From positions 1 to 64,000 of IMG/VR virus record IMGVR_UViG_2576861193_000004: a stretch of 64,000 nt of DNA, one strand, 5' to 3'. Position numbers and translations under genes: made by a program. The stretch comes from a virus. Lineage: Duplodnaviria; Heunggongvirae; Uroviricota; Caudoviricetes. This document shows, one piece after another, positions 7,692 through 49,832 of the stretch. Each line of letters opens with the position of its first letter. Within the stretch, counting starts at the first letter, position 1. The notes beneath the pieces are model-generated. The model saw nothing but the letters and a program-made list of their open reading frames with translations, did no database searches and was not told where the DNA came from.

Positions 7692-7869
7692 GTTGGTTTG
7701 CAAGACAGACCTTATGTAAGCAGTTTTAGTAAAGCAGTCTCAGTTCAGTGTTATCTTCTGATTTCCCTTCTTCGTGAGTCTCCTCCTTAAGTGCCTAAGT
7801 AAGTCCCAATCTATACAGATCAAATTCTCGCCGCACTATGTGGCTCACAAAATTAAGAAGGTAATATCT
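7692..7869 (+). promoter_or_regulatory. long cspA-like 5' untranslated leader (candidate RNA thermosensor / cold box)
   Basis: About 178-nt leader with segments resembling the E. coli cspA leader (CAGACC, AAAGCAG, GTAGTAA, AAGGTAATA before the ATG). Compared from memory. Confidence 0.45.
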
Positions 7870-8085
7870 ATGTCTAATAAAATGACTGGTTTAGTAAAAT
7901 GGTTTAACTCTGATAAAGGCTTTGGCTTTATTTCTCCTGCTGATGGCAGTAAAGATGTTTTTGTACATTTTTCGGCAATTCAGAGTAATAATTTCCGCAC
8001 TTTGGAAGAAGGCCAGCAGGTCGAATTCTCTATCGAGAATGGGGCTAAAGGCCCAGCAGCAGCAAATGTCGTTGCTCTAAGCTGA
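7870..8085 (+). CDS. csp: cold-shock protein, CspA family
   Basis: 70 aa [38 protein letters not shown]... with RNP1/RNP2 motifs, near-identical in pattern to E. coli CspA/CspB/CspG; AAGAAGG Shine-Dalgarno 7 nt upstream. Confidence 0.95.
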
Positions 8086-8173
8086 TTCAACGCTGATGAT
8101 CCTCATTTCTACAATAACGAAGACGGTGTAAGCCTGAGTGGATAGATTTGTAGGATTGTACAAGTTGAATAAA

Positions 8174-8203
8174 TTAGCATGGTAAGGCCATGCTAATTAA
8201 ATC
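8174..8203 (+). terminator. hairpin terminator candidate after csp
   Basis: Stem ttagcatgg / ccatgctaa with taag loop, followed by TTAAAT. Confidence 0.4.
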
Positions 8204-8357
8204 GACACAACGGCCAGTTTATTCCATAAAAGTGAATTGCCCATTGTGGCGAAATGCGGGGTTGCCGCATGAATAGTCAAAGGCAGAAGCTAACTGCCGG
8301 CATGGCAAAACAAAGTGCGTAAGAGGAGTGACTTCCTCAACAAGCGCCATAATTCTT

Positions 8358-8390
8358 TATAAACCCGCCAACAGGCGGGTTTTCTTTATT
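8358..8390. terminator. bidirectional rho-independent terminator between csp and the polymerase gene
   Basis: Hairpin cccgcc-aaca-ggcggg flanked by an A-run upstream and ttttctttatt downstream; serves the plus-strand csp unit and the minus-strand polymerase gene ending at 8389. Confidence 0.6.
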
Positions 8391-11300
8391 ACTTATTTAT
8401 TGTCTCCGCGATATCAGCCAGAATGGCCTCCAGTCGCTCTCCTTCTTCCGGTCGGAAGTACAGGATATTCGGGTTAAATCCGTAGAAGACGGTTGCATCA
8501 AGCTCTGGGAAGTACTCCTTACGACCAATCAGATCTGATGGTTTACTCTTATTGTTAAATAGTGCGGTTGAACGACTACCACACGTCAAAATGTAGGTTG
8601 GTCGTACAAGATTAATTTCTTCCCGCATAAAGTCTGTGAACTGGCCTATCTCGTCTTTGGTATAGTCTTTCTCTTTGTCCTTAACCTTCTTACAAACACC
8701 CGTGACATAAAGATCGCCCATGCGCAGATCTCCAACTGTCAGTAGTTTTGCCTTAAAGTCGTCGTATCCGTTCTCCATGAAGTAGCCGGTACGAGCGTCA
8801 TTGCCGTTCGCATTGTCCAGAATGATCATGATTTTGGGTTTAATACCAATAGTCGGGCGTATCAACTCCTCACCCAAGCCCATTTCAGCCGCCATACGTG
8901 TCATGAGTACGTTGATTTCGGCAGAACGCTTAGGATTCATTTCGAACGGACGTGATGCTTTAACAGCGTCAATGATGAGATTGCCCATCAGCTCAGCCTG
9001 GTCGCGCAGTCGTTCAGGATCAGTTGCTGGCAGACTGCCTGGCTCAATTGACGCAAAAGCCCCTACTTTATGAAGCGACTCGCGTACACGACTGTTACAT
9101 GCACGCTTCTCGACCGCTTCATCGAATTGTGCCACTGACTCGAATTTGCCACCAACTTTCTCACGCGCACGCATAATTGCCTGACAACCATTTTCAGAAC
9201 AGCCTTTCACAGCAGAGAATGGCGCATACAGTGCCTGACTGCCGTCTTCGAGTGTGCGGATCTCAATTCGGTTAGATGACACATTAACGTCTGGTGGCAA
9301 TACGCGAATGCCATAGGTCAGCGCATCCTTCACCAGCCCCTGATGCTTATCCTCGCCCAGAATGGTGAGCGCAGCTGCGAAGAACTCAGCAGGGTAGTGC
9401 GTCTTTAGCCACATAGACTGATAACTGATTAAAGAATAAGCAACGGAGTGTGATTTATTGAAGGCATATCCACCGAACTTCTCAAAGGCGTCCCATATTT
9501 CTTGGGCTTTTTCCTTACTGAGACCTTCTTGTTCAGAGACGATCTCCACGTAGTCTATGCCGTCACTAATAGCCTCGCTGTAGCTTCTACGCTTACCGTC
9601 TGAGCAATCCAGTTTTGCGTGTTTGTGAACCTCTACAGTACCTCCATTTTTGAGTGACAGTGTCACCCAGCCTGCTTGTGCTCGTTCTACAAAATCGCTG
9701 CCGATCGCTTTCATCTTATCCATGTTCTTTTTACCGATAGCGGAACGCAGAGCGTCTGCTTCGGCCATAGAGAACCCGGCAAGTACTCGGGAACTTTGCA
9801 TGATTTGTTCCTGATAGAGCAAAACACCATTAGTCTCCCGGGTGACTTCCTCAAGACGCGGATGAATTGAATGTGGAGCCATGAAGCCTTTGGCCACGGA
9901 GACATAGTCGTCCAACATGCCGGATTGGATCGGGCCAGGTCGGAAGAGTGCGGTCGTGGCGACAACGGTTTTAAAGCTCATTGGCTCAATGCCACCGCCT
10001 AGATCTTTAAGCAGCTTGCGCATGGGGCCGGACTCCAGCTGGAATACGCCCTGTGTATACCCTGCAGCAAAACCATCCAGCACCTTGCGATCTTCAAGAG
10101 AAATGGCATCAAGATTGATATCTTCACCTGTGTTCTCTTTTATGTAGCGTTTTGCACTATCGAGCAAATCGAGAGTTGCCAGGCCAAGCACGTCCAGCTT
10201 AATTAGGCCCATAGCCTCGCAGTAACGCTTATCAAATGCGATACAACGCGCGTCACCACGGCGCTCAACCGGTGTACGTTCTGTCAGAGGAACACCTGCT
10301 ACAATCATCCCTGCCGCATGTCTACCAAAGCCACGCATAAGGCTTTGTAACTTGCAGGCTGCATTGAATGCATCAGGATATTTTGTTGCGTATTTGTCGA
10401 GACTTGCCAGTTGTTCGCGCAGCTCTTCCAATGGAAGGCTATCATCCTCGACGTTCTTCAGTTCTTTTGATACCGCCATATCTGCGGACTCCACACCATA
10501 AATACGAGCGGTGTCACGTAGTGCAGAGGCTGCGCCCAGGTAGGTGAAGTTCGGAATGCCTGCAACGTAATCTTCGCCGTAGCGTTCATTCAGATACTCG
10601 ATCACCTCATGGCGACGTGCCTGGCTGAAGTCCAAATCCGCATCTGGCAAGTCGAGACGCTCAGGGTTGATGAAACGTTCAAACAGAAGACCGTGACGGA
10701 TAGGGTCGACGTTGGTTATGCCTATGCACCATGCCACCAAAGAGCCAGCGGAGGAACCACGACCAGGCCCGACAGGAATGCCAGTTTCACGGCTGTGATT
10801 CATCAGATCGCGTACCATCAGGAAGTAACCACAAAATCCCAGGCGAGTAAGCGTGTCCATTTCGTACTTAAGTCGCTCAACATAAACCCTGTTCTCAGAA
10901 GCCGGTGGTGTGTATCCAAACTCTTTTGTGGTAAGACGTTTACGCAGCCCTGCAACAGCCAGTTTCATCAGCGTTGCAGGTTCGTCGTCTGCCATCTTGG
11001 GCAGTGCTGGTGGCAATTCATGCCAGCGCCATGTACAGGCTTCGATAATGGAGTCCTGCGTTGTTGAGGCCATTGCAGCTGTTACCGGCACATCCATGCG
11101 AACGGAGAAGGCTTTAAGCGCCTCAAGGAGATGGCGGCGACCATTGACGGCGTTATCTCGCTGGTGGGGTATACGCAGACGATGCGGCTGGTCGATTTTT
11201 ATGTTGTTCGTAACCATGTGCGCAATGTCTTTAATGTCTGCATCGTCGATCGATTCGTAATAAGCGGGATAGAACGCTACTGGCTCTATTTTCAGTGCGC

Positions 11301-11895
11301 TGGCTACTTTCATCGCTCGGACGTTAATCTGGTCGTAGAATGGGGTAGGGTGCGGATAAACCACGCTATAGAAGTTGTCTTTCCCGCCCGCTGTAATCAG
11401 TGAGCTTATGATTTTTGCAAAATCGTTGCGTTGGAACACGCTACCGATGTCGGAAGTGAGCAGGATGATGTTGCCTTTGGCATATGTAGAAACCAACTGT
11501 TCGAGCGAGAGACGCGGTACAAAGTAGAACTGTTCTCGTGTGTTGGCCACCGTCATTAGTTCGCAGATGTCGCGATATCCTTGCTCATTTTTAATTAGAG
11601 CGGTAAACGAGTAGTTACGTCCCCGCTCTAATGATTCCATACATCTCATAGATTCTTTAGCAAGTTTAGCCCGGTGCTCGTATGTGGGATCATCAACGAT
11701 ATTTAGTTTCACACCACAAATAACCGCCATGTCGTCACCAGCGGCACGTTGTAGTGGAATAACACTCGCAATATTCATGCTATCTGCTGAAATTACAGCG
11801 GTGTAGCCAGCTTCTCTGGCAATCTTCACCGCGTTTTCTGCTTTTAGAGCCGACTCCCCAAGTGAGAAGTCAGTTCGAACCATCAGTGCTTTCAT
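8389..11895 (-). CDS. dnaE: DNA polymerase III alpha subunit (DnaE-type replicative polymerase)
   Basis: 1168 aa; N-terminal PHP-like region, polymerase core motifs (e.g. GYAFNKSHSVAYSLISYQSMWLKTHYPAEFFAA) and a C-terminal OB-fold region aligning by eye with E. coli DnaE. Confidence 0.9.
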   Translation of the reverse strand: MKALMVRTDFSLGESALKAENAVKIAREAGYTAVISADSMNIASVIPLQRAAGDDMAVICGVKLNIVDDPTYEHRAKLAKESMRCMESLERGRNYSFTALIKNEQGYRDICELMTVANTREQFYFVPRLSLEQLVSTYAKGNIILLTSDIGSVFQRNDFAKIISSLITAGGKDNFYSVVYPHPTPFYDQINVRAMKVASALKIEPVAFYPAYYESIDDADIKDIAHMVTNNIKIDQPHRLRIPHQRDNAVNGRRHLLEALKAFSVRMDVPVTAAMASTTQDSIIEACTWRWHELPPALPKMADDEPATLMKLAVAGLRKRLTTKEFGYTPPASENRVYVERLKYEMDTLTRLGFCGYFLMVRDLMNHSRETGIPVGPGRGSSAGSLVAWCIGITNVDPIRHGLLFERFINPERLDLPDADLDFSQARRHEVIEYLNERYGEDYVAGIPNFTYLGAASALRDTARIYGVESADMAVSKELKNVEDDSLPLEELREQLASLDKYATKYPDAFNAACKLQSLMRGFGRHAAGMIVAGVPLTERTPVERRGDARCIAFDKRYCEAMGLIKLDVLGLATLDLLDSAKRYIKENTGEDINLDAISLEDRKVLDGFAAGYTQGVFQLESGPMRKLLKDLGGGIEPMSFKTVVATTALFRPGPIQSGMLDDYVSVAKGFMAPHSIHPRLEEVTRETNGVLLYQEQIMQSSRVLAGFSMAEADALRSAIGKKNMDKMKAIGSDFVERAQAGWVTLSLKNGGTVEVHKHAKLDCSDGKRRSYSEAISDGIDYVEIVSEQEGLSKEKAQEIWDAFEKFGGYAFNKSHSVAYSLISYQSMWLKTHYPAEFFAAALTILGEDKHQGLVKDALTYGIRVLPPDVNVSSNRIEIRTLEDGSQALYAPFSAVKGCSENGCQAIMRAREKVGGKFESVAQFDEAVEKRACNSRVRESLHKVGAFASIEPGSLPATDPERLRDQAELMGNLIIDAVKASRPFEMNPKRSAEINVLMTRMAAEMGLGEELIRPTIGIKPKIMIILDNANGNDARTGYFMENGYDDFKAKLLTVGDLRMGDLYVTGVCKKVKDKEKDYTKDEIGQFTDFMREEINLVRPTYILTCGSRSTALFNNKSKPSDLIGRKEYFPELDATVFYGFNPNILYFRPEEGERLEAILADIAETINK

Positions 11896-12075
11896 GTGTT
11901 TTTACCTTTATGGTTTTTTTGATTTTGTCATTGGGGAAGCCTACGAACTTCCCATACATCGAAATCGCAACTTCTTTTGCTGATTGGTGACAATCGGGCT
12001 TGTCTGGACATACCAGACAAGCCTTACCAGTTTCAGAAGCAGCGATAAGAGAGCCGAAACATCCTTTACGCACGA

Positions 12076-13311
12076 TCAACCAAATATTTTTTGAACAACT
12101 TCACGAGCCGCTTGTGCAGAAGCTGAAGGGAGTTTGTTAATGAAAGAACGCTCAATACCTGTCACAAAGTCGCCTCGCATCATTCCAATCTTGGCCGACA
12201 ACAAAAGTTCACGAGGGCCAATTGGCTGACTGATAAGGTGTTCTTCGTATCCATCGCGAACGATACCGGCAAACTTAACCATCTTTTCTGCGTATTCATC
12301 CACGATACCGGCATTTATCAACATGTTGATCTCTGCCTCTTTGCTCATGTATTTCACATTCGAAACGATGCCAAAACGCGAAAAGTTCGCGGCGTTCTGG
12401 ATGTTTGTACCCTGGTACAAGCCGGTTTCATCACCAGATCCGTTCGTGTTGCCAGTGCCAATGAAAGCAAACCGTTCATGCGGAGTAATGCGACGCCATT
12501 CTGGAGTCGCCTCTTTGATGACCAACGCTTCACCTTCCAGCACTGGCTGATACACGCCAAGAATCTGTGGAAACGCAAAGTCGTATTCATCCGCGAGGTA
12601 AACCCAGCCATGCTTCATTGCGAGCGCAAGCAAGCCAGGCTCGAAATACGTAGAGCCATCACGCGCCAGAATTTGCCCCGTAACATGTGCCTCTTCCATT
12701 GATGCTGTATGTTGGGCACGGATCAACGGACGATTGAGCAAAGCACATAGTTGTGTAGGCAATGACGATTTGCCTGTTCCTGCATGACCCCACAAATAGC
12801 CAGGTATGCCAAGTTCAAGCATCATGAAAATATCTTTGATCAGTTCGAAGTCGCCATATACGTAGCCTTTCTTCACTTCGGGAACGAACTCTGGATACGG
12901 CGTATTGACGTTGACGCTAACCATGAGCGGCGTCCCACGTTTTGTTCCGAGTTCTTCCACCGTTACGTTTAGCAGTTCGTGAGCTGCGACCAGATCTGTC
13001 TTGTACTCAACTGTGCCTGTGTAGCCAGGGCTACTGGTCAAGCCAGAAGATTTGGCCATTTCGCTTTTTTGCTCGGCACGTTTAGCTTGAATTGCATCAA
13101 GTGCCTTTTTCGATAGCGTTGGTTCATCTGGAAACTGCGTTGTGTACATTTTCAGTACGGTGTCAGGATCGGCATCTTTTACTGACTCAGGAATGCCCTC
13201 GCAATTACCATTGGCTACATGGGACTTAAAATAGTGAAATGATTTTCCGCACCACTTGCAAACAAGGTAATCAGAAGGATTTTTTTCATTTTGCAGTGCA
13301 GTAGTAGTCAT
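12076..13311 (-). CDS. CobS-like MoxR-family AAA+ ATPase with N-terminal zinc-ribbon
   Basis: Walker A GHAGTGKS, Walker B VYLADEYD, sensor region FAFIGTGNTNGSGD; N-terminal CKWCGK...C. Confidence 0.8.
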   Translation of the reverse strand: MTTTALQNEKNPSDYLVCKWCGKSFHYFKSHVANGNCEGIPESVKDADPDTVLKMYTTQFPDEPTLSKKALDAIQAKRAEQKSEMAKSSGLTSSPGYTGTVEYKTDLVAAHELLNVTVEELGTKRGTPLMVSVNVNTPYPEFVPEVKKGYVYGDFELIKDIFMMLELGIPGYLWGHAGTGKSSLPTQLCALLNRPLIRAQHTASMEEAHVTGQILARDGSTYFEPGLLALAMKHGWVYLADEYDFAFPQILGVYQPVLEGEALVIKEATPEWRRITPHERFAFIGTGNTNGSGDETGLYQGTNIQNAANFSRFGIVSNVKYMSKEAEINMLINAGIVDEYAEKMVKFAGIVRDGYEEHLISQPIGPRELLLSAKIGMMRGDFVTGIERSFINKLPSASAQAAREVVQKIFG

Positions 13312-13406
13312 GCGTTTTTCCTTTGTTTTCTAATGAGCGTTCAACTTCTTATATAAATATATCATTATCTATCGTAAGTGGTTACTTATCGTTAAGGCTG
13401 TTTTGT

Positions 13407-15515
13407 TCACTTTAAAATGATACGAGATAGTTCAGTAACTACAGATGAACCAAGACTATCAACGCTCGTTACCAGGGCATGATTTGAGTAAAATCTCTCC
13501 GGTGCGTCAGTCATGATGCCAATTGCCATCAAATCAATGTCAGTCTGCGTTTCAATTTGCTTCGCAACCGAACGCAAATGAGCGTCAAAACCTCTCCCAA
13601 CAGCCCACGGCTCGCCATCGCTCAGAACAAGCATGATCTTCCTGTCCTCCATGCGACCGGAAAATAACGATGCAAGGCTGGCTATGCTTTCACCATCCAC
13701 GTTATTAAGAAGTGGGAATGTGTAGCCTACGCACCCCATACGTGAGCGAACTTCGCGAGAATTTACCTTTTCATTCCAATTTTTGATGATAGGTAGCATT
13801 AAAGATTCAAAGCGAGAGAACTCATACTTGACAGCCTTAAGTTCTCCTGCCGCCATATGACTACCAAATGTAGTGAAGCCGGTGATAATGTTGGGAACAT
13901 TTATTCGATCAAGGGCATCGGCGATGGTATATGCACTTGCAAGAGCCAATTGTATCGTTATACCCCTCATTGAACCTGATAAATCAATCACTTGTTGAAC
14001 ACAGGCGTTAACGGCTTTAGATTCTTCTTTTTTACGAAACACGCGATCATCATTCATTGCTAATCTGTAGATACTAGAACCATGAATGCGCCCCCGACGC
14101 TGGCCCGGTATAAACTGAACTCTGTTTCTGCTTGCTATTGCTCGCTCCAGGTCTTTTGCCAGCGTCGACGAAACACCTGACGAAAGATGCTTTTCAATAT
14201 ATTTGTCGAAGAGCTGGTTGCCTTCAGGAACGATGCGATAGCGGCTGATTGGACATCCTCCTAAATCAATATCGGAGAATGTTTTAATAAGCCGTTTGAT
14301 ATGGGCTTCTGCCTGATCAATCGAGCCGATGAAGTCGTATGAGCGATTGTATGGCCTGTATTCGCTTTTCGAGCTTTCTGTTAACTCGCTTTTAATCGTT
14401 TCGGATAGAGCATCTTCTGTCATGCCTCCGACTTCATCTTCTATGCTATCCAGCTCCTCTAAAGCCTCTTCCAGACTCATTTTTGACGGAGTTGGAATAT
14501 CTGAAGAGCCGTCTTCTGTCGTTTTTCTTTTTTCGTGGTCAGCGGTTAATGATTCTGACGCCGCGTTATCAGAAGCATCAGAATCTGATACCTCTTTATC
14601 ATTTTCTGTATCATCGAATATTGTTTCTGATGATTCAGAATTATCTGAATCATCGCTGTCGTTATTATCATGTTTGTGCTTACTGTGTGATTCTGATTTG
14701 ATAGATTTGTGATTATCTAACGCTGAGGGTGTCTCATGATCTTCGTTGTCTTCATTGTTTTCTCCAGAGGCATCCGTCTGGTCAGCGTCTGAAGGATCGG
14801 AAGTTTTTCCCGGAGCTGACTCCTTACCTTTGCTTTCACTTTCAGTGTCTTTGAGGATCTTAGCTATGGTCGCAGCCACCTTTACACAATCCTCGGTGCA
14901 AGACATGTTACGCACGGCCACATCGATACCATGTTCTTTTAATAATGAAATTGGTTTCTCAATGACAGGCCAATATTCATCCATGAAATCTACGAACGGT
15001 GCTTGGCCATCCCAGGCTCTTACAACCGGACAGAGAAAGAAGTTTAGAAAAAGCGCGCGCTGATCTTTGCCACAATAAGCAATAGCCTCTGAAGCCTTTG
15101 GTTTAAAGACTTTTTCGATTATAAGGCGCTGAGTTGCCATCAGATTACGTCTTGTTCCGTTAAAGATCTGACCCATTTTTCGCTCGATGAACACGTCTTC
15201 TAAGGCATTCCATAGCGACCAGGAAGGAACGCGTCCTTTTTCTCTCATTTTGTTGGACACACGAATATCGGTAAACAAAATGTGAGCAACCTCATGATCG
15301 AGAAATCCGCGCACAGCATTCATCAATGCCGGTGTTGCGTTATCCGGGATTGATGGGATGTTTACGAGAATTGGCTCTCCATCATCGTTATAGCGTACAT
15401 AAGCGTCGTCCCCTCGTTCTGCAACAGGGATGTTTTTACCTGAAAGGAGAGCGACTACTCGTTTTACACTGTCACGGAAGTCCTGAACCTCTTTGATGGA
15501 ACGTTTTTTAGACAT
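13407..15515 (-). CDS. CobT-like von Willebrand factor A (VWA) domain protein with long acidic disordered linker
   Basis: C-terminal VWA-like region (VIDLSGSMRG ... LVLSDGEPW); central 150-aa stretch extremely rich in D/E/S; gene immediately downstream of the AAA+ partner. Confidence 0.75.
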   Translation of the reverse strand: MSKKRSIKEVQDFRDSVKRVVALLSGKNIPVAERGDDAYVRYNDDGEPILVNIPSIPDNATPALMNAVRGFLDHEVAHILFTDIRVSNKMREKGRVPSWSLWNALEDVFIERKMGQIFNGTRRNLMATQRLIIEKVFKPKASEAIAYCGKDQRALFLNFFLCPVVRAWDGQAPFVDFMDEYWPVIEKPISLLKEHGIDVAVRNMSCTEDCVKVAATIAKILKDTESESKGKESAPGKTSDPSDADQTDASGENNEDNEDHETPSALDNHKSIKSESHSKHKHDNNDSDDSDNSESSETIFDDTENDKEVSDSDASDNAASESLTADHEKRKTTEDGSSDIPTPSKMSLEEALEELDSIEDEVGGMTEDALSETIKSELTESSKSEYRPYNRSYDFIGSIDQAEAHIKRLIKTFSDIDLGGCPISRYRIVPEGNQLFDKYIEKHLSSGVSSTLAKDLERAIASRNRVQFIPGQRRGRIHGSSIYRLAMNDDRVFRKKEESKAVNACVQQVIDLSGSMRGITIQLALASAYTIADALDRINVPNIITGFTTFGSHMAAGELKAVKYEFSRFESLMLPIIKNWNEKVNSREVRSRMGCVGYTFPLLNNVDGESIASLASLFSGRMEDRKIMLVLSDGEPWAVGRGFDAHLRSVAKQIETQTDIDLMAIGIMTDAPERFYSNHALVTSVDSLGSSVVTELSRIILK

Positions 15516-15613
15516 GGCTAATCCTTTGTTATGAAAACAAATTATTTACTAGTGTGTTTAATGTAGCACTGCGCGAACAGGGAACTAAGCCATTCGCGCA
15601 GGGAGAAGAGGGG

Positions 15614-15826
15614 TTAACAGATTCTGACGGCTAAAGACCCGGAGCCGGTATTGAGAAGCGTGAAGCGTTTGTTGTTAAGTTCGAATATAAATCCAGTTGT
15701 GTCATTCACACCAACCTGAATCTGCTCATTCGGTAGATCGGTGAGGATGTCAGCTACACACTCATCAGCTAATTTCTGTACGTGTCCGATCTCAAGAGCG
15801 ATTAGGCTGGAAATAGTGGTGTTCAT
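15614..15826 (-). CDS. hypothetical protein
   Basis: 70-aa ORF downstream of the VWA gene on the same strand; no motif. Confidence 0.35.
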   Translation of the reverse strand: MNTTISSLIALEIGHVQKLADECVADILTDLPNEQIQVGVNDTTGFIFELNNKRFTLLNTGSGSLAVRIC

Positions 15827-16077
15827 TCAATCAATCCATTCTAACTTATACTATGGTAAGGAATACTACTAAAATTTGTATCAATACTGAATACATTCAT
15901 ATCATATGCAAGTTGATTTTCTTACCTGTTTTGGGCTAATTTTTCTCCGTGCAATGGCCTTTAACCGGTCTTTTAAGTGCCTATCGAAAAAAATGATAAT
16001 AGCTTTACAACCCTAACCTTTGATGTAATATCGGTAAGCACTTACCAGAGAGAATTGAACGCGCAAAGGTTGTAACC

Positions 16078-16464
16078 ATGTCTGATAACAAGATTGAATT
16101 TATAGAAAGTCGCTACGCTGCTTTTATCGCAGGGTTGATTGAATCCTCACCTATGAGCCAGGCCCAGATAGCCAAAACAATTGGGTATAAAAACGCCAAC
16201 AACCTTTCTTTAATTAAAAGCGGCAAAATTCCTTTGCCTATCGATAAGGTTCGTCCGCTGGCGCTGGCACTGGGTATTGAGCCAAGTCGTCTTATGATGA
16301 TGGTGCTGGAAGAACGCCAACCCGAACTCGCAGCATTTTTATACAAAGAAGGCACTGCTCCTCTTAACGAGGACGAAAAACAGGTTCTTGCTGCATATAA
16401 CGAGCGATTCGGTAAAGAGAAAGGCGCATCACAAAAGGTTGTTGAGGCCATAAAGTCTCTATGA
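16078..16464 (+). CDS. XRE-family helix-turn-helix transcriptional regulator
   Basis: HTH segment MSQAQIAKTIGYKNANNLSLIKSGK; 128 aa; convergent with the recombinase gene. Confidence 0.7.
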   Translation: MSDNKIEFIESRYAAFIAGLIESSPMSQAQIAKTIGYKNANNLSLIKSGKIPLPIDKVRPLALALGIEPSRLMMMVLEERQPELAAFLYKEGTAPLNEDEKQVLAAYNERFGKEKGASQKVVEAIKSL

Positions 16465-17562
16465 AAAATTTACACGAATAAGCTCTGTTGATAGACGATC
16501 TCCCTTAAATTTGTGGTCAATTTCGTCTAAATCCGGTTGCTCTACGATTGATGCGATGTACGTCGAGAAACTTTCTAAGGCGTCTCGCATCTCGTCCATA
16601 TAATCGTGCCGGTCGTAGACCCGATCTATCCCCTCAAGACTGTGGTTCATGATTTTACGTGATACCTCCTGGCTTATGCCTAATGCTGGGAAGTAACTAC
16701 GCGCAGTACGGCGCAAATCTCGGGGTGTAAATGGCTCAAGCTCCATCAGTTCTGGTCGTTCCAGAATACGACGTAATGCCTGGGCTATTGCCACTTTAGA
16801 CATAGGAAGGTCTTTCCCGATTTTTTTATTCGAAGGCACGAGCCACTGGCTGTCTTTACCATATTCGAACAACTCTTCAATACAAGTGCGCATTAATGAG
16901 CTTAAAGGCAGAGAATGCTCACGGGCAGATTTGTTCCTCTTGCCTTGATTCCAAACCCCACGCTTAAGATTGAACTCACTTTTTTTAGCCCGCAGTACTT
17001 CGTCAGGTCGTCTTGCGGATACAAGACATAGCCTGGCAGCCCATTTTGTACCAGCACACACATTGAAGTAGTCCCATATATTCCAGAACACCCATACCTC
17101 TGCGTCGGTCAGCTTCCGCTCGCGAGGTGTGGGCTTTGCGCCACCGGCAACTTTGTTAAGTGACATATCGTTTAACGGTGACACGTCTATCATCCCCTGG
17201 AAGGCGCACCAGCTAAGGAACTGCTTCATCAGAGAGAAAACGCGGCGGCCCATAACAATTTTGCCATCCAGTATTAGTGGGTTGACCAGTTGGTTCACCA
17301 TGAACCTATTAATGTCACTTACTTTTACATCGGCAATGTGCGGCAAAACATGTATCAAAATACAATGAACAGCGATCTCTGGCCGACGTCTGGTTATCAG
17401 CAGAGATAAGCGAGTGAATAACATGAATGCGTCCGAGAATCTCATGTCATTGCTAACCTGCGAGATCATAACGGCCTGCATTTGAGATGCTCTTTCGAGA
17501 TACTCTATCGCCTCTTTTGAGGTGTTCTCCGCAGCGCGTGCTCTGTCAAAGCTATTTTTCAT
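16459..17562 (-). CDS. int: tyrosine site-specific recombinase (phage integrase family)
   Basis: Catalytic-domain residues in order: ARRPDEV (Arg), PRDLRRTA, MNHS, RVYDRHDY (Tyr). Could be an integrase or a multimer-resolution recombinase. Confidence 0.8.
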   Translation of the reverse strand: MKNSFDRARAAENTSKEAIEYLERASQMQAVMISQVSNDMRFSDAFMLFTRLSLLITRRRPEIAVHCILIHVLPHIADVKVSDINRFMVNQLVNPLILDGKIVMGRRVFSLMKQFLSWCAFQGMIDVSPLNDMSLNKVAGGAKPTPRERKLTDAEVWVFWNIWDYFNVCAGTKWAARLCLVSARRPDEVLRAKKSEFNLKRGVWNQGKRNKSAREHSLPLSSLMRTCIEELFEYGKDSQWLVPSNKKIGKDLPMSKVAIAQALRRILERPELMELEPFTPRDLRRTARSYFPALGISQEVSRKIMNHSLEGIDRVYDRHDYMDEMRDALESFSTYIASIVEQPDLDEIDHKFKGDRLSTELIRVNFS

Positions 17563-17660
17563 ATGACAATCACCGAGTTACGCCGATGCACTGTATAAGT
17601 AAACAGTATATTAGGCATAGATTCTTATAGGATCAAGAGTAAAAGTAACTCATTTTCAGC

Positions 17661-17693
17661 AATGATTCCATACATAGTAGGTATGGAATCATT
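17661..17693. repeat. perfect 13-bp inverted repeat AATGATTCCATAC / GTATGGAATCATT with 7-bp spacer
   Basis: Read directly; the right arm recurs as single copies at 19434..19446 and 20446..20458. Confidence 0.8.
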
Positions 17694-17772
17694 TTGACGT
17701 TGTTTTTTGAATTTTAAGGGAAATGGGAGTGAGTTTGGTGGGAATAAAAACGGCTCCTGTGAGCCGTTAAAA

Positions 17773-18018
17773 TCAGAGGGTGCTGACGTATGCAGCCAGT
17801 TCTGTGTATCCGCCAATCGGCTGGCCATCGATCAGCACCTGGGGGATAGTCTCTACCGGTTTACCAACAATTTCACTTAGTTTTTCCTTGTCGATACCGG
17901 CAGTGGTGATGTCGATGTACTCATAATCACCGTAGCCATGTCCCTTTAGTTGCTTCGCCAGCTCGACCGCACGTTTGCAGTATGAGCAGTTATCTCGTCC
18001 GTAGATAGTGATCGTCAT
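17773..18018 (-). CDS. glutaredoxin-like protein (NrdH/GrxA type)
   Basis: 81 aa with CSYC active-site motif near the N-terminus and glutaredoxin-length fold. Confidence 0.8.
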   Translation of the reverse strand: MTITIYGRDNCSYCKRAVELAKQLKGHGYGDYEYIDITTAGIDKEKLSEIVGKPVETIPQVLIDGQPIGGYTELAAYVSTL

Positions 18019-18365
18019 TGCTTTGCCTCATGCCACTTTTGCTTCAGGAGATAGCCTTCCAGGGGCCAGATTTGATCGATAGCATCTTTTCGAGCGTACT
18101 CGCGACCAACATCAAAGTTGAAGATTTCTGGTCTTACGCACGCAGATTTTCCCGTTACGGTATATCCATTTTTGAGAACCATAACGCAGAACGTTAAGAG
18201 TTTTAACGACTCATGACCTTTGTCGATATCTGTTTTTGAATTGTAAACAGAGATGAAGTTATCCCCGTGGCTGGCATCATATGCAGTGAAATAATGTTCA
18301 CTTTGAATGAGTTGTTCAATGTGTTCAGGGGTGACTTTTAGTGGTGTGTTATCTTTGCTGGTCAT
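18015..18365 (-). CDS. hypothetical protein
   Basis: 116-aa ORF whose stop overlaps the glutaredoxin start by 4 nt (coupled); no motif. Confidence 0.45.
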   Translation of the reverse strand: MTSKDNTPLKVTPEHIEQLIQSEHYFTAYDASHGDNFISVYNSKTDIDKGHESLKLLTFCVMVLKNGYTVTGKSACVRPEIFNFDVGREYARKDAIDQIWPLEGYLLKQKWHEAKQ

Positions 18366-18406
18366 TATTTCTTCCTACAAAGTTCGTAGACTTGACTCTT
18401 TCAGTT

Positions 18407-18438
18407 GCAAAAAAGGGGCCGAAGCCCCTTTGAATTTT
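18407..18438. terminator. bidirectional hairpin terminator candidate
   Basis: aggggcc-ga-agcccct stem flanked by an A-run upstream and T-rich sequence downstream. Confidence 0.5.
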
Positions 18439-18586
18439 GCGCTGAAAAAAAGTGTTGCTAGGATGTTAGCAAGCTATGGTTAAGAACGTCTGCCGTAATT
18501 GTCTATCACAGCGTTGAGCGGTCTGGTTTATGTTAGCGGAGTCTTAATCTGGGTGATTAAAAGGCCAAACCGCTCAACGCTGTGTC

Positions 18587-18673
18587 TGGCGGAGAGTAAT
18601 GGAATCGAACCATCATCGCTTGCGCAATGGGACGGTTTTCAAGACCGCTTGAGCACCATGCTCCCTACTCTCC
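18587..18673 (-). tRNA. tRNA-Ser: tRNA-Ser (anticodon UGA), type II with long variable arm
   Basis: Manual fold of the reverse complement: 7-bp acceptor stem GGAGAGT/ACTCTCC, discriminator G, encoded CCA, T-loop TTCGATT, anticodon loop CTTGAAA. 87 nt. Confidence 0.8.
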
Positions 18674-18772
18674 AGCTATTGTGATGGTCGGTGCTGAACT
18701 CCGACACAGGGTTGTAGCAAGCCCCGCAAAGCGCGCACTACTGTAGTTGCGGCACATCAGCCTGTGCATTCA

Positions 18773-18862
18773 TCACAACGGTAAGATCACTACCTTTCGA
18801 CCAGTCATTGTGCACATGAACGACGATTAACCGTAATGATCTTATCGTTGTGTTGTGAAGCC
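18773..18862. repeat. long stem-loop 1 in tRNA spacer (arms CACAACGGTAAGATCA / TGATCTTATCGTTGTG)
   Basis: About 17-bp inverted arms with one mismatch, separated by about 50 nt; paralogous to stem-loop 2. Confidence 0.6.
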
Positions 18863-18900
18863 AGATGCTTATCTTCTGGTTGCTTCAAAGAGCTGCACTT

Positions 18901-18996
18901 CCTCACAACGGTAAGAGCACTGGTCTGACTCTATCGATTTACGGGCTTGTGGGTCAGTATCGCCGATTCGCCCAATGCTCTTACCTGTTGTGTTGG
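18901..18996. repeat. long stem-loop 2 in tRNA spacer (arms CACAACGGTAAGAGCA / TGCTCTTACCTGTTGTG)
   Basis: About 17-bp inverted arms separated by about 50 nt; right arm abuts the 3' end of tRNA-Thr. Confidence 0.6.
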
Positions 18997-19069
18997 TGCC
19001 GGTTAACGGGATCGAACCGCTGACATCCTGCTTACAAGGCAGGCGCTCTACCAACTGAGCTAAACCGGC
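18994..19069 (-). tRNA. tRNA-Thr: tRNA-Thr (anticodon UGU)
   Basis: Reverse complement GCCGGTTTAGCTCAGTTGGTAGAGCGCCTGCCTTGTAAGCAGG...GGTTCGATCC...AACCGGCACCA: D-stem GCTC/GAGC, anticodon stem CCTGC/GCAGG, loop CTTGTAA. 76 nt. Confidence 0.85.
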
Positions 19070-19073
19070 AATT

Positions 19074-19160
19074 TGGTGGGGAGTGATGGAGTCGAACCAC
19101 CCGAGTCGCAATGACAGTAGATTTACAGTCTACCCCGCTGCCCCTACGGACTAACTCCCC
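19074..19160 (-). tRNA. tRNA-Tyr: tRNA-Tyr (anticodon GUA), type II
   Basis: Acceptor GGGGAGT/ACTCCCC, anticodon arm GTAGA-CTGTAAA-TCTAC, long variable arm, T-loop TTCGACT, CCA encoded. 87 nt. Confidence 0.8.
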
Positions 19161-19165
19161 TAAAT

Positions 19166-19240
19166 TGGCGATGGTGGGTGGATTCGAACCACCGACCAGT
19201 TGGTTAACAGCCAACTGCTCTACCGCTGAGCTACACCATC
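19166..19240 (-). tRNA. tRNA-Asn: tRNA-Asn (anticodon GUU)
   Basis: Acceptor GATGGTG/CACCATC, D-arm GCTC-AGCGGTA-GAGC, anticodon arm GTTGG-CTGTTAA-CCAAC, T-arm GGTGG-TTCGAAT-CCACC, CCA encoded. 75 nt. Confidence 0.85.
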
Positions 19241-19506
19241 AATTCAGCACTGCCAGTATTTATTACTCAACAGTGCCAATCGCGACGGTTTAGTTTCTGC
19301 CAGGAAACGCACCGCTACTTGCACTTTTCGTTAGTGCCAGACGCTTTCGACTTCGCTCAATAGTAGAAGGCAAAATCTTTAAGTAGATGATGTTTCTGAG
19401 GACAGCACCTACTTTGTAATTTATACAATGTGATGTATGGAATCATTTGTTGTGAAAACAGGCACCAATGGCAACAGTGGTTAAACCTACACAACAATCC
19501 TGTCTT

Positions 19507-19628
19507 CACAACGTTGAGGCCACTACTCCGATTGAATGTTTGCCCAACATGTTACATATCAACGCTCGCCGGTATCTCTGTGAATAGAACCTTAGAATTG
19601 ATAAAAATGTAATGGCCTCAACGTTGTG
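19507..19628. repeat. perfect 15-bp inverted repeat CACAACGTTGAGGCC / GGCCTCAACGTTGTG separated by 92 bp
   Basis: Read directly (arms 19507..19521 and 19614..19628); shares the CACAACG core with the tRNA-spacer stem-loops. Confidence 0.7.
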
Positions 19629-19789
19629 TGCTGGCTAACCATACCAGCCGGGCTACGTCGCCGCTTTTTAACCCAGTATAAACGACATAATTGAACAAAA
19701 TGACGTAACAGGATGGGCGGTCAGTGGCTAAGAATCCGGGAGTCATATGGAGTTGAAAATATACCAACCGCCCATTCTGTTACTTCATC

Positions 19790-19813
19790 GGAGGGAACAT
19801 GAATGTTCCCTCC
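19790..19813. repeat. strong palindromic hairpin GGAGGGAACAT-ga-ATGTTCCCTCC
   Basis: 11-bp perfect arms read directly, in a 780-bp stretch without convincing ORFs. Confidence 0.7.
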
Positions 19814-20018
19814 TGCGTTCTGCAATCACACTCGCTCAGTGTGTCCCATTTCGGTAACGAGGCTGGAAACTGACCTCGCTGGTGTTTGGCTTATTAGGCT
19901 ACTGCCAGATAGACTTCTTCGTTTGCACTTGTATTTAAGTTCAAACAGTCGCGTCTCAACGAAAACAAAGTCATCTTATACATAAAAGATAAGTAAGTAA
20001 ATACTTATCACCATGTTT

Positions 20019-20309
20019 TTATTCGGTTGTGACTTTTTTGATCAAGGCCACTCTACGACTAGGTGTTCTTGTGATGGTGGCAGTGAATCGTTTCGCTTGG
20101 ATAGTAATGGTTTCGTTCTCCTTAAGTTGCCCGTAGCGAGTTTCCACCAGGGTGCCAAGACGCCACAGACCATCATCGATACGTTTATGACTGGCAAATT
20201 TAATCAGCAGCAGTTTTACGACTAACTGACCTACGTAAAAGGCGAATGCGACTCCGGCCGCTAAGAAATAGGTGGCCAACCACCAGTCCCAAGAAGTTAA
20301 ATTGCTCAT
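20019..20309 (-). CDS. hypothetical membrane protein
   Basis: 96 aa with N-terminal hydrophobic segment WWLATYFLAAGVAFAFYVGQLVV; AAGG Shine-Dalgarno before the ATG. Confidence 0.45.
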   Translation of the reverse strand: MSNLTSWDWWLATYFLAAGVAFAFYVGQLVVKLLLIKFASHKRIDDGLWRLGTLVETRYGQLKENETITIQAKRFTATITRTPSRRVALIKKVTTE

Positions 20310-20458
20310 TTTCTAACCTTTGTTTCATGAACTACCCGATACACACGCTTTCCGATGCACAGTGTTTTGGTTTTAAGTTCCTGCTTAATTAAATCACGAC
20401 AGATGCCGAAGCCGATAAGGAAGCCACCCATAAAAGCTAATGAGATGTATGGAATCAT
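20306..20458 (-). CDS. small hydrophobic protein (50 aa), not in the ORF track
   Basis: MIPYISLAFMGGFLIGFGICRDLIKQ...; its stop overlaps the ATG of the downstream gene; its start lies inside a copy of the GTATGGAATCATT motif. Confidence 0.25.
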   Translation of the reverse strand: MIPYISLAFMGGFLIGFGICRDLIKQELKTKTLCIGKRVYRVVHETKVRK

Positions 20459-20670
20459 TTTAACGCTCCTGATTCTACTAATTGCTGTAGCAATACTTTC
20501 CCTTTATCAGTTAACTGGTAGTTGGCCGAACACCACGTTTCAGAAACGTTTGCAACCAACCCTAACCGCTCTAACTTAGCTCGCGTTTTAGGCTTCCAGT
20601 ACTCAGGGAACTCCGGCCACTTACTTATTTCATGAAGCGTTTCTTTCTCCCGTTTACTTAATACGATCAT
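20455..20670 (-). CDS. hypothetical protein
   Basis: 71-aa ORF whose start overlaps the ligase stop by 4 nt (coupled). Confidence 0.45.
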   Translation of the reverse strand: MIVLSKREKETLHEISKWPEFPEYWKPKTRAKLERLGLVANVSETWCSANYQLTDKGKVLLQQLVESGALK

Positions 20671-21989
20671 TCTTTATCTCCGATTCGATCTTCGGTATCG
20701 CGTAAGCAACGCGGCCATTTCAGTCGTGGGTGGCGTAAGCTGCCATCCGGCGTTTTCTCGTGACAATGAACCTCGACAATACGACCACGGTACTTCTCTT
20801 TGTTGTTCCAGATCTCGTCCAGATATTTATGCTTAATGCCGCTCGCACGAACAATCACACCGTTTTCAAGGCGAATAACAATTTTTCCAAGCGTGTTGGC
20901 AAAACCAGAGTCCGGGTCGCCAGGCTCAAAGTCGATAATTTCACCATCTTCTGAATCTTCGTCTTTTAACTTCCACCAGCTGCGGGTACGTTTAAACTCG
21001 TAAACAGAGTTCGGATCTTTGCCCATCTCCCCTTCTTCGTTATCGTCCAGGCGTTTCATGAAGCGTTCGATGAAGTCTTCGTGGCTATGGATGATATAGA
21101 ACGGATGCAGGTGAATGTCTTGTGCGTAGCCTTCACTGCGATCGTTTTTAAACAACGCCACCAGCATAGCCAGGCGCTCTTTCAGCTTCATACCTGTCTT
21201 TGCATACTCTTTGGATTTAGCCTGTGCCCGCCATTCCGGTAGGAAGAAGTCGAAAACATGATAAATAGCGCCAATTGCCTGCACGTTCTTTTTGCGCAAT
21301 GCAGATACGGACTGGTTAAATGAACCGGCTGTTCCTTCACCATCGAAGAAGATGTGTTTGTGGCCTGAAAGTTTGCCTAATTCGAGCATTGCTGGCTTTA
21401 GGTGATCGAGAGACGTGATTGGATTACCAGTACGAGAAAGGAAGTTAACCTCTTCCTCGTCAACAATAACCTCACAAATTACTCGCAAACCATCGAGCTT
21501 AAGGCTGCCAATCATCGGCCATTTGGCTTTAGGATTTGGCTTGAAGGGGTATTTGTCGCCTTTTTCTTTATACGGTGACGCCAGCTGCACCTCGAATTTC
21601 GGAATGGGATTTTCAAAAACCTTGTTGCATAGGCTAATCCCAACACCTGCTTTCGGGTCTTTTAAGAGGAAACGACGGAACACGTCCTGCCCATCGGCGC
21701 ACATTGACGCCACGATAGACTCAACAGCTGCTATTGCTGCGTTCCCCGTCAGCTCGCGAGAGGCCAGCTTATTCAGTATATCAATGGCTTTTTCGTCACT
21801 TGGGACGGACTCACTAAGCGGCTCTGCCACTTTGTATTTCTTTACCCCAAAACGGATGAAAGGGTTGAGCATCAATGAAACCATGCTTTGCTCGAAGTCA
21901 TCCATGTTGGCCAATGCCTCTTTTTTTGCATTGGTTCCCATAGCTTTCATTTCGTCCAGCTTATGCTTAAGTGCGATCAACTTTTTCAT
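20667..21989 (-). CDS. ATP-dependent DNA ligase
   Basis: Adenylation motif I KLDGLR (catalytic lysine), nucleotidyltransferase-superfamily layout, 440 aa. Confidence 0.85.
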   Translation of the reverse strand: MKKLIALKHKLDEMKAMGTNAKKEALANMDDFEQSMVSLMLNPFIRFGVKKYKVAEPLSESVPSDEKAIDILNKLASRELTGNAAIAAVESIVASMCADGQDVFRRFLLKDPKAGVGISLCNKVFENPIPKFEVQLASPYKEKGDKYPFKPNPKAKWPMIGSLKLDGLRVICEVIVDEEEVNFLSRTGNPITSLDHLKPAMLELGKLSGHKHIFFDGEGTAGSFNQSVSALRKKNVQAIGAIYHVFDFFLPEWRAQAKSKEYAKTGMKLKERLAMLVALFKNDRSEGYAQDIHLHPFYIIHSHEDFIERFMKRLDDNEEGEMGKDPNSVYEFKRTRSWWKLKDEDSEDGEIIDFEPGDPDSGFANTLGKIVIRLENGVIVRASGIKHKYLDEIWNNKEKYRGRIVEVHCHEKTPDGSLRHPRLKWPRCLRDTEDRIGDKE

Positions 21990-36348: not shown

Positions 36349-36440
36349 GTTGAATATGCTCCTTGATTTGGCGGGCTATCCTTGCCCGCCATTAAGTATA
36401 TACTTACCTATTTTTACCGATATAAAATTTTTTTCCACCA

Positions 36441-49758: not shown

Positions 49759-49832
49759 TGATGGAAAACTCCTTTTTCCGTTAATTCTACGCATTCATTG
49801 CGCTAATAGTAAGTATATACTTACCAATTGAG

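Follow-up and report, generated by a model that had tools for sequence, protein, structure and literature searches.

The stretch analysed here, called the window throughout, comprises positions 1 to 64,000 of the IMG/VR virus record IMGVR_UViG_2576861193_000004 (Caudoviricetes) and is an SSU5-like phage-plasmid: positions 16000-21500 share 98% identity with Escherichia phage Cyrano, which is the SSU5-like phage-plasmid pLF82 of E. coli LF82; other SSU5-like elements match them as well. Beside a gene for a tyrosine recombinase of 367 amino acids (aa), a 13-bp word, GTATGGAATCATT, forms the two arms of a perfect palindrome, and the same word recurs as single copies in the surrounding replication module. 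We propose, with a probability of about 0.6, that this word is the recognition element of the adjacent recombinase, deployed both as a lox-like palindrome and as additional isolated half-sites. The two parts of the proposal differ in strength: comparison of many loci makes it very likely that the palindrome serves as cognate crossover site for a recombinase widespread on plasmids and phage-plasmids, and the single copies are, with less assurance, probably extra binding sites of the same protein.

The word is present in five exact copies, two of them being the palindrome arms and three standing singly, and no other 13-mer is repeated as often in the window. In 100 dinucleotide-preserving shuffles it gave no exact match against the five observed, and the complete 108-kb Cyrano genome holds five copies only, all inside 9.2 kb; the motif is real and beyond chance. 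The recombinase gene contains a sixth, degenerate copy, GTTTGGAATCA, at 16946..16956 (minus strand). An earlier note on this DNA had described the inverted repeat exactly as it stands (AATGATTCCATAC-ATAGTAG-GTATGGAATCATT, between the recombinase and glutaredoxin genes) and had counted four copies in all, overlooking the exact copy inside the gene for the alpha subunit of DNA polymerase III (PolIII alpha); the two single copies that it listed do exist, each one base to the right of where it had put them (Table 1). The observation was real, and the arrangement is richer than was first described.

The crossover-site assignment draws on two sets of loci, namely 51 SSU5-like viral loci retrieved via the CobT-like protein and 49 loci from bacterial genomes retrieved with a recombinase alignment, of which 48 hold clear members of the family. 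An inverted repeat of two 13-bp arms around a 7-bp spacer (13-7-13) is found 50-250 bp upstream of the recombinase gene in 48 of these 48 family loci (about 100 bp upstream in the window), and every SSU5-like viral locus covering that place has the same architecture. Pooled, the loci yield 36 distinct sites, in all of which the spacer is 7 bp long, with 18 spacer sequences following a loose pattern C-T-n-n-n-A-A. The arms of the SSU5-like clade read GTATGGAATCA plus two variable outer bases, and those of the clade from Pantoea, Erwinia, Rahnella and Xenorhabdus, where the protein is 45-52% identical, read GTCTGGAGTCA plus two; the difference between the clades consists of two inner arm positions (A/C and A/G), always altered jointly on both arms. 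Among the 36 distinct sites, columns 6/28 are CG in 24 and TA in 12 with zero mismatches, columns 11/23 are GC in 22 and TA in 12, and the outer two arm positions covary too, so that 4 of the 13 arm positions have been altered on both arms and complementarity holds at 96.8% of arm positions. The few asymmetries between arms are A-C or G-A and never G-T, which argues for a double-stranded protein site over an RNA hairpin. The palindrome was not scored as a terminator in a consensus promoter and terminator scan.

Inverted arms of about 11-14 bp, a spacer of fixed length (6-8 bp) and free sequence, and a nearby cognate recombinase that changes jointly with its site are among the marks of simple crossover sites of the loxP/FRT/dif type, and these three are found here. 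The earlier suspicion of a DNA site tied to the neighbouring tyrosine recombinase finds support in comparative evidence as far as the palindrome is concerned. One recombinase monomer would occupy each arm, and strand exchange would take place inside the 7-bp spacer. The spacer occurs in both orientations relative to the recombinase gene, even where the recombinases are 97-100% identical, and its orientation relative to the gene is therefore immaterial, as expected if a site need only match its own copy. The flips, of the spacer or of the whole symmetric site, are recurrent and leave the flanks unchanged: TCTATAG and CTATAGA, or CTATTAA and TTAATAG, replace one another between loci L110, L111, L115 and L120 on the one hand and L112, L113, L114 and L117 on the other (about 9886-9918), and also across L060-L107.

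The recombinase itself matches Pfam PF00589 (Phage_integrase) and, weakly, PF22022 (Phage_int_M). All family members are without the arm-binding domain PF13356, which remote P4-type homologues (24-34% identity) carry. Residues R185, D282-L283-R284-R285 and Y316 are invariant in the family and K211 and H307 nearly so; we take R185, K211, R284/R285, H307 and Y316 to be the counterparts of the canonical R-K-H-R-H/W-Y boxes. An AlphaFold2 model (predicted local distance difference test score, pLDDT, 84.9) has as its nearest folds the core-binding and catalytic part of lambda Int, followed by Xer, Tn1549 Int, XerH and IntI; Cre ranked 35th or lower in the Foldseek search (E=0.02 or worse), and a sequence search of the PDB returned zero matches at E<=1. 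The protein consequently falls outside the Cre-type family by sequence and closest-structure similarity, as the site does by its spacer, which is not the 8-bp one of that family. Nor does it group with integrases of the lambda or P4 type, given the missing arm-binding domain and distinct arm-type sites, the extra copies being equal to the core arms. The earlier suggestion of a recombinase arm site fails in its lambda sense: the palindrome is built like a core crossover site, and an arm-binding domain is lacking throughout the protein family.

By tblastn, the recombinase family was found on 1,081 PLSDB plasmids, 989 of them typed as non-mobilizable, with Klebsiella (385), Escherichia (252), Enterobacter (96), Pantoea (75), Yersinia (63) and Salmonella (54) among the genera. 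On a low-copy plasmid prophage the palindrome could resolve multimers, as Cre/loxP does for P1, a role to which we give even odds. As a by-product, it could act as a hot spot at which related plasmids swap the DNA beyond it. Homology between the window and its relatives ends exactly at the outer edge of the plus-strand arm (17693-17695), many matches to E. coli plasmids end at that same base, and at least five unrelated flanks begin precisely past the outer arm among near-identical genomes. Such breaks in homology are what one would expect of a crossover hot spot with identical arms in every partner. In the compared loci no further motif copies or other shared repeats were found bounding the cargo blocks beside the palindrome. 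In every cargo-slot comparison (the window, L001 at 7695-8590, L002, L003 and L005) the flank starts at the first base after the arm. The slot of Cyrano is occupied by CYRAN_43, expressed 723-fold above background in the lysogen (PMC9928086), and that of L052 by a GNAT toxin-antitoxin pair.

The single copies match the palindrome arms across 13 nt and share a longer word among themselves, GATGTATGGAATCAT(T), with the consensus GATGTATGGAATCAT; we refer to them as sites C, D and E, and to the degenerate one in the recombinase gene as near-copy F (Table 1). They are syntenic in elements of the SSU5, Klebsiella, Kluyvera, Yersinia, Buttiauxella and Nissabacter types, down to a recombinase identity of 59-60%. 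The earlier note had held that absence of the motif from relatives would speak against it; the outcome was the opposite, syntenic conservation down to about 60% recombinase identity. At site E, in 21 distinct sequences, 1 of 5 third codon positions varies within the motif against 35 of 39 in the flanks (p=0.002). The codon preceding it is AGA, GGA or AGG, the amino acid switching between R and G as the bases GA mostly stay, and the peptide CMESL that the site encodes lies in a PolIII loop whose sequence differs in more distant PolIII homologues. At site D, 1 of 15 positions varies against 49 of 75 in the flanks (p=3e-5), and for third codon positions the figures are 1 of 5 in the motif and 15 of 19 outside. 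Such constancy at synonymous positions amid varying flanks means that selection acts on the nucleotide sequence itself. Site C is kept in the SSU5, Klebsiella, Kluyvera and Nissabacter lineages, its tRNA-side flank being unrelated between deep lineages. All single sites turn their GAT side towards the palindrome, an arrangement that, with four sites only, has by itself a chance probability of about 1 in 8. A link between single sites and palindrome is visible in the lineage of K. pneumoniae pCRKP18622-1 (recombinase 59% identical), where the palindrome arms end in CACA, not CATT, and the single site corresponding to C, 16 nt past tRNA-Gln, reads GATGTATGGAATCACA, altered along with its palindrome arms.

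A degenerate second arm, sought by eye 7 bp from each single site, reaches at most 4 of 13 matches, so the single sites are not full recombination or crossover sites. The copies at 11630, 19435 and 20447, together with the decayed one in the recombinase gene, would instead be isolated half-sites, each binding one monomer and, for want of a second arm, unable to recombine. Their role would be regulatory or architectural, for example as a roadblock to or repressor of replication-gene transcripts, or through looping to the core site. Near-copy F reads GATGTATGGAATCA(A/G)GG in most lineages and has decayed to GGGGTTTGGAATCAAGG in the E. coli lineage; it may in part be a by-product of the conserved peptide VWNQG. 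A near-copy word, GATGTATGGAATCAAGG, stands at recombinase codons D-V-W-N-Q-G in L005 (8483), L060 (10607) and L109 (20118). In 42 loci from megaplasmids and distant phage-plasmids, single copies in the form of GTCTGGAGTCA arms did not exceed chance within about 10 kb of the gene, and Chimaeribacter plasmids, which have SSU5-type arms and no SSU5 backbone in their 10-kb flanks, show no single copies in those flanks.

Several searches were directed at other functions of the single copies. The consensus promoter and terminator scan placed no sigma-70 sites at them; a permissive Rfam scan of 11000-21000 returned the four transfer RNAs (tRNAs) and noise, with nothing at any motif copy; and a comparison with consensus sequences gave no convincing match for host-factor sites (IHF, Fur, DnaA, sigma-54 or sigma-E promoters). 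We also rejected a shufflon-like inversion between D and E, which would truncate PolIII and yield a 6-codon open reading frame (ORF), and whose adjoining 7 bases differ in other lineages.

The genes around the motif copies form a replication module, almost all on the minus strand, in the order ligase, 71-aa ORF, 50-aa ORF, 96-aa ORF, four tRNAs, a gp49-like gene, glutaredoxin and the tyrosine recombinase, beyond which follow CobT-like and AAA genes and PolIII alpha; a convergent gene on the plus strand encodes a helix-turn-helix (HTH) protein of the XRE type.

Table 1. Motif copies, regulatory elements and genes of the recombinase region (window coordinates)
Feature	Position	Strand	Remarks
13-7-13 palindrome	17661..17693		exact in window; arms 17661-17673 and 17681-17693, spacer ATAGTAG 17674-17680
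GTATGGAATCATT copy, palindrome arm	17661-17673	minus	exact
GTATGGAATCATT copy, palindrome arm	17681-17693	plus	exact
GTATGGAATCATT copy	11630-11642	minus	inside PolIII alpha gene
GTATGGAATCATT copy	19435-19447	plus	exact, single
GTATGGAATCATT copy	20447-20459	plus	exact, single
Site C, GATGTATGGAATCATT	19432..19447	plus	intergenic; about 190 bp from tRNA-Asn, 2 nt from hairpin
Site D, GATGTATGGAATCATT	20444..20459	plus	stop of 71-aa ORF, start and codons 2-5 of 50-aa ORF (MIPYI)
Site E, GATGTATGGAATCATT	11630..11645	minus	inside PolIII alpha, codons 84-89 (R-C-M-E-S-L)
Near-copy F, GGGGTTTGGAATCA, degenerate	16946..16959	minus	inside recombinase gene, codons G-V-W-N-Q
Tyrosine recombinase ("integrase"), 367 aa	16459..17562	minus	core-binding and catalytic domains
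Recombinase promoter and LexA (SOS) box	17589..17636	minus	read from sequence
Promoter elements	-35 TTGATC 17636..17631; -10 TAATAT 17613..17608	minus	17-nt spacer
LexA box ACTGTATAAGTAAACAGT (ACTGT-N8-ACAGT)	17590-17607		directly after -10, overlapping its end
Variable "cargo" slot	17694..17795		100 bp here; 0.9-2.4 kb of unrelated genes in relatives
Glutaredoxin gene	17773..18018	minus	
Glutaredoxin terminator	17768..17749	minus	55 bp from palindrome
XRE-type HTH gene	16078..16464	plus	"putative repressor" in Cyrano; convergent with recombinase gene, 6-bp overlap
PolIII alpha gene	8389..11895	minus	
71-aa ORF	20455..20670	minus	
50-aa ORF, PHROG 6302	20306..20458	minus	conserved gene

A number of points weigh against our proposal: (i) binding, strand exchange, multimer resolution and half-site function are all steps that we infer; (ii) the first catalytic histidine, that of the HxxR motif, is Arg281 throughout the recombinase family, so that catalytic competence is not guaranteed; (iii) the joint change of arms and single site is seen in one lineage only; (iv) three of the four single sites lie inside genes, not at promoters; (v) for half-sites 1.7-6 kb from the core we know of no mechanistic precedent in an active tyrosine recombinase; (vi) control by the SOS response is unusual for a housekeeping resolution system; and (vii) SSU5 and locus L254 are without the recombinase yet have the single sites (with one base changed in site C of SSU5). 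The last of these says little either way, since the flanks in SSU5 and L254 are 95-98% identical to those of module-bearing genomes and the losses look recent. In SSU5 (L004, 8625-8690) everything matching positions 15613-19165 of the window is gone, the recombinase-XRE module included, and in L254 (14190-14675) a 164-aa ORF replaces cargo, palindrome, recombinase and XRE. Loss of the module may accompany loss of stable lysogeny, since SSU5 is a phage that was isolated in free form and serves in phage cocktails.

The SOS link comes from the promoter of the recombinase gene, where a LexA box would place transcription towards the XRE repressor gene under SOS control. The pattern ACTGTN8ACAGT has a single occurrence in the 64-kb window, with 0.03 expected. 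The SSU5-like lineages keep both promoter and box, and the megaplasmid clade has no such box. Cyrano has two strong LexA boxes in its entire genome, this one and TACTGTATGTGTATACAGTA at 89277, which stands just upstream of CYRAN_98, a gene for a LexA-like S24 peptidase. Cyrano is induced 39-fold by ciprofloxacin, and in its lysogen the XRE gene is expressed and the recombinase is not among the expressed genes (PMC9928086). Given the box on the promoter and this silence in the lysogen, the recombinase is probably made mainly after DNA damage, which fits a role in induction as well as, or better than, housekeeping resolution. Because the recombinase gene converges on and overlaps the XRE gene, SOS-induced transcription would run antisense into the latter, and the LexA-controlled convergent pair is a candidate induction switch. 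A third degenerate copy of the motif, considered at the -35 element of this promoter (TTGATCCTATA), was rejected as a plain -35 element that matches at only 8 of 13 positions and is not kept in other lineages.

A more far-reaching form of the proposal, in which the "integrase" of the SSU5/pHCM2/pMT1 type is catalytically intact and SOS-induced and does two jobs, seems to us rather unlikely. The protein would recombine at the palindrome and, through the half-sites, would control the expression of the replication module or the architecture of the DNA at the switch from lysogeny to lysis. The half-sites may then have settled in tolerant positions of replication genes, namely within PolIII alpha, at the start of a gene for a small membrane protein, in the tRNA region and in the recombinase gene itself. 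On this view, the LexA-controlled transcription that converges on the XRE repressor gene would belong to the induction switch.

The rival explanations are taken here in order of falling probability. The first, to which we assign roughly half the likelihood of that two-job form, treats the single copies as neutral scars, that is, outer arms left behind after insertion, by site-specific recombination, at an older palindrome whose inner arm was later lost. This would account for their polarity, as the GAT side of all single sites is the spacer side, for the position of site C between a conserved and a lineage-specific flank, and for the slot beside the palindrome being a cargo hot spot. Scars would decay, whereas D and E are invariant at synonymous positions where 15 of 19 (D) and 35 of 39 (E) neighbouring third codon positions vary, and the single sites persist at 59-60% recombinase identity. 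Moreover, E lies in a contiguous PolIII gene and F in the recombinase gene, so neither can be an insertion junction.

Two further explanations are each quite improbable, and about equally so. One places the motif at the RNA level: sense copies (AAUGAUUCCAUACAUC), located at the start of the 50-aa ORF and ahead of the tRNA genes, would anneal to their complements in the PolIII mRNA and in a hairpin formed by the palindrome, and would thereby control translation or processing. The genes concerned are all on one strand, D and E are perfectly complementary over 20 nt in the window, and D covers a start codon. Against this, the extended complementarity of D and E is lost in other lineages, on megaplasmids the palindrome of the same word accompanies the recombinase into unrelated transcriptional surroundings, mismatched arm positions are A-C or G-A and not G-U wobble pairs, and there were zero Rfam family matches; pairing would also leave the identity with the recombinase arms unexplained.

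The other sees in the motif an operator, bound by the XRE-type repressor or by some other regulator of the phage, with the palindrome as a double operator, a possibility that the earlier note had also raised. The XRE gene is adjacent, is present in every lineage with single sites, and is expressed in the Cyrano lysogen (PMC9928086). The gene is missing, however, from about 40 of the loci, on megaplasmids, which retain both recombinase and palindrome, and the site thus follows the recombinase and not XRE. Within about 10 kb of the gene, single sites are missing from distant phage-plasmids in which an XRE homologue goes with GTCTGGAGTCA arms. Arm centres 20 bp apart and a spacer of free sequence suit a tyrosine recombinase, not an HTH dimer.

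Still less probable is an attP core for chromosomal integration with the single copies as arm-type sites, even though the gene is annotated as an integrase, the nearest folds are those of lambda Int, and the 7-bp overlap is the lambda value. Among 5,426 complete E. coli genomes, the segment from recombinase to palindrome was found in 252 genomes at 255 places, all of them on plasmids; none of the 255 was an integrated state with attL and attR, and no chromosome carried a look-alike of the 33-bp palindrome that could serve as attB. These two results together make chromosomal integration unlikely. The arm-binding domain is missing as well, and the extra copies are identical to the core arms and kilobases away. 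As for tRNA 3'-end mimicry, a trait of P4-type att sites, there is only an 8-nt resemblance, GATTCCAT, to the T-arm of the tRNA-Ser of the window.

Finally, the duplicated Met-Ile-Pro-Tyr initiation cassette of the earlier note, whose copies would start small proteins, is not supported and is the least probable reading: ATGATTCCATAC is indeed present on one strand of every copy, but only the one at 20459 is a true gene start, the other frames being 6-29 codons long, unconserved in length or sequence and without a Shine-Dalgarno sequence (that at 19447 has 29 aa here and 6-7 codons in other lineages), two of them passing through the variable palindrome spacer and one, with its ATG at 11630, running antisense inside PolIII.

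Considered as a recombinase recognition element, the system resembles several known ones without coinciding with any. With Cre/loxP of P1, and likewise with FRT, rox, vox and dif, it shares two 13-bp inverted arms around a short spacer of fixed length, and with Cre/loxP also a location beside the recombinase gene on a low-copy plasmid prophage, one site per replicon, the absence of an arm-binding domain and the likely job of multimer resolution. It differs in that the spacer is 7 bp, not 8, that the enzyme is not Cre-type, its remote homologues being P4-type integrases, and that there are an SOS-controlled promoter and isolated extra half-sites. Published screens for Cre-type systems (Panto/pox, the YR series) sought 8-bp spacers only, and this site is not among their results. 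Lambda Int with its core site (C-O-C') and the P4-type integrases are alike in their core-binding and catalytic domains, to which the structural match is best, and in a 7-bp overlap, which is the length in lambda; they differ by the N-terminal arm-binding domain and distinct arm-type sites that are lacking here, and by an integrated form, whereas the present arms are perfectly symmetrical and no integrated form is seen.

In TnpI/IRS of Tn4430, IntI1/attI1 and FRT, extra copies of the recombinase-binding motif stand within about 100 bp of the core and belong to one nucleoprotein complex. The use of the same word in an inverted core pair and in extra single copies of fixed orientation is common to these systems and the present one, but here the extra copies are 0.7-6 kb away and three are inside genes. 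Integron integrases (intI) are LexA-controlled, and the integron platform resembles the present locus in the LexA box at the recombinase promoter, in a site immediately upstream, and in variable cargo that starts at the site and holds a very highly expressed gene. Unlike in an integron, however, there are no attC-like elements around the cargo and no second site, IntI is only a weak fold match, and the cargo differs as whole blocks and not as cassettes.

The dispersed copies recall MrpR, an integrase-fold protein that binds a dispersed 15-bp element, SPBRE (PMC10516654). MrpR (YopR) and SroF of SPbeta-like phages have in common with the present case a tyrosine-recombinase fold, an asymmetric word of about 15 bp at several places of a temperate-phage genome and a link to SOS; the dispersed word here amounts to 3-4 conserved single copies of GATGTATGGAATCAT, all within 9 kb, which the recombinase would bind. 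MrpR has lost most catalytic residues, is the lysogeny repressor and has its sites in intergenic promoter regions, whereas here most of the catalytic residues are retained, there is a palindromic crossover site, most single sites are inside genes, and the recombinase gene looks LexA-repressed in the lysogen, which is not the behaviour of a repressor of this type. A recombinase with two jobs would, if it exists, be an intermediate step in evolution between true recombinases and MrpR and SroF, the master repressors with an integrase fold.

No description of the target site, part of a lox-like system that would combine a 7-bp spacer and a non-Cre enzyme with SOS control and remote, conserved half-sites, was found in the searchable literature, including that on pHCM2 and pMT1 and on multimer resolution. 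Its interest lies in several directions: (i) the family is present on more than 1,000 sequenced plasmids, including SSU5-like phage-plasmids of E. coli, Klebsiella and Salmonella, Yersinia pestis plasmids and large plasmids of Pantoea, Erwinia and Rahnella; (ii) with its defined 33-bp site, its 7-bp spacer and an enzyme other than Cre, the system could become one more orthogonal tool for recombination; (iii) the palindrome would explain at which place cargo is exchanged between these plasmids, the cargo including morons with very high expression in a Crohn's-disease-associated E. coli; and (iv) the half-sites inside genes and the LexA box would offer handles on the control of lysis and lysogeny in a large group of phage-plasmids.

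Other features were noted near the sites. Long hairpins at 18771-18855, 18910-18985, 19449-19512 and 19507-19628 have related stems (CACAACG(G/T)T.AG... / ...GTTGTG), and such hairpins fill the spaces between and upstream of the tRNA genes, site C ending 2 nt before one of them. The stretch of about 570 bp between the 96-aa ORF and site C (19448-20018) holds no convincing ORF; it is conserved in Klebsiella from about 19613 onward and in SSU5 relatives along most of the stretch, and Rfam gives a weak match to the transfer-messenger RNA type (19843-19945, E=0.04). It may be an unannotated structured RNA. At the corresponding place in L109 (14828-14861) there is a fragment resembling a tRNA 3' end, GGTTCGATTCCGC...GCGCCA. 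The tRNA sets differ among close relatives: the tRNA-Tyr of the window (19074-19160), between tRNA-Thr and tRNA-Asn, is missing from Cyrano, SSU5 has tRNA-Asn only, and L109 has tRNA-Gln. A second palindromic word, (G)TAAGTATATACTTA(C), stands at two distant places of the window, about 36393-36408 and 49809-49824.

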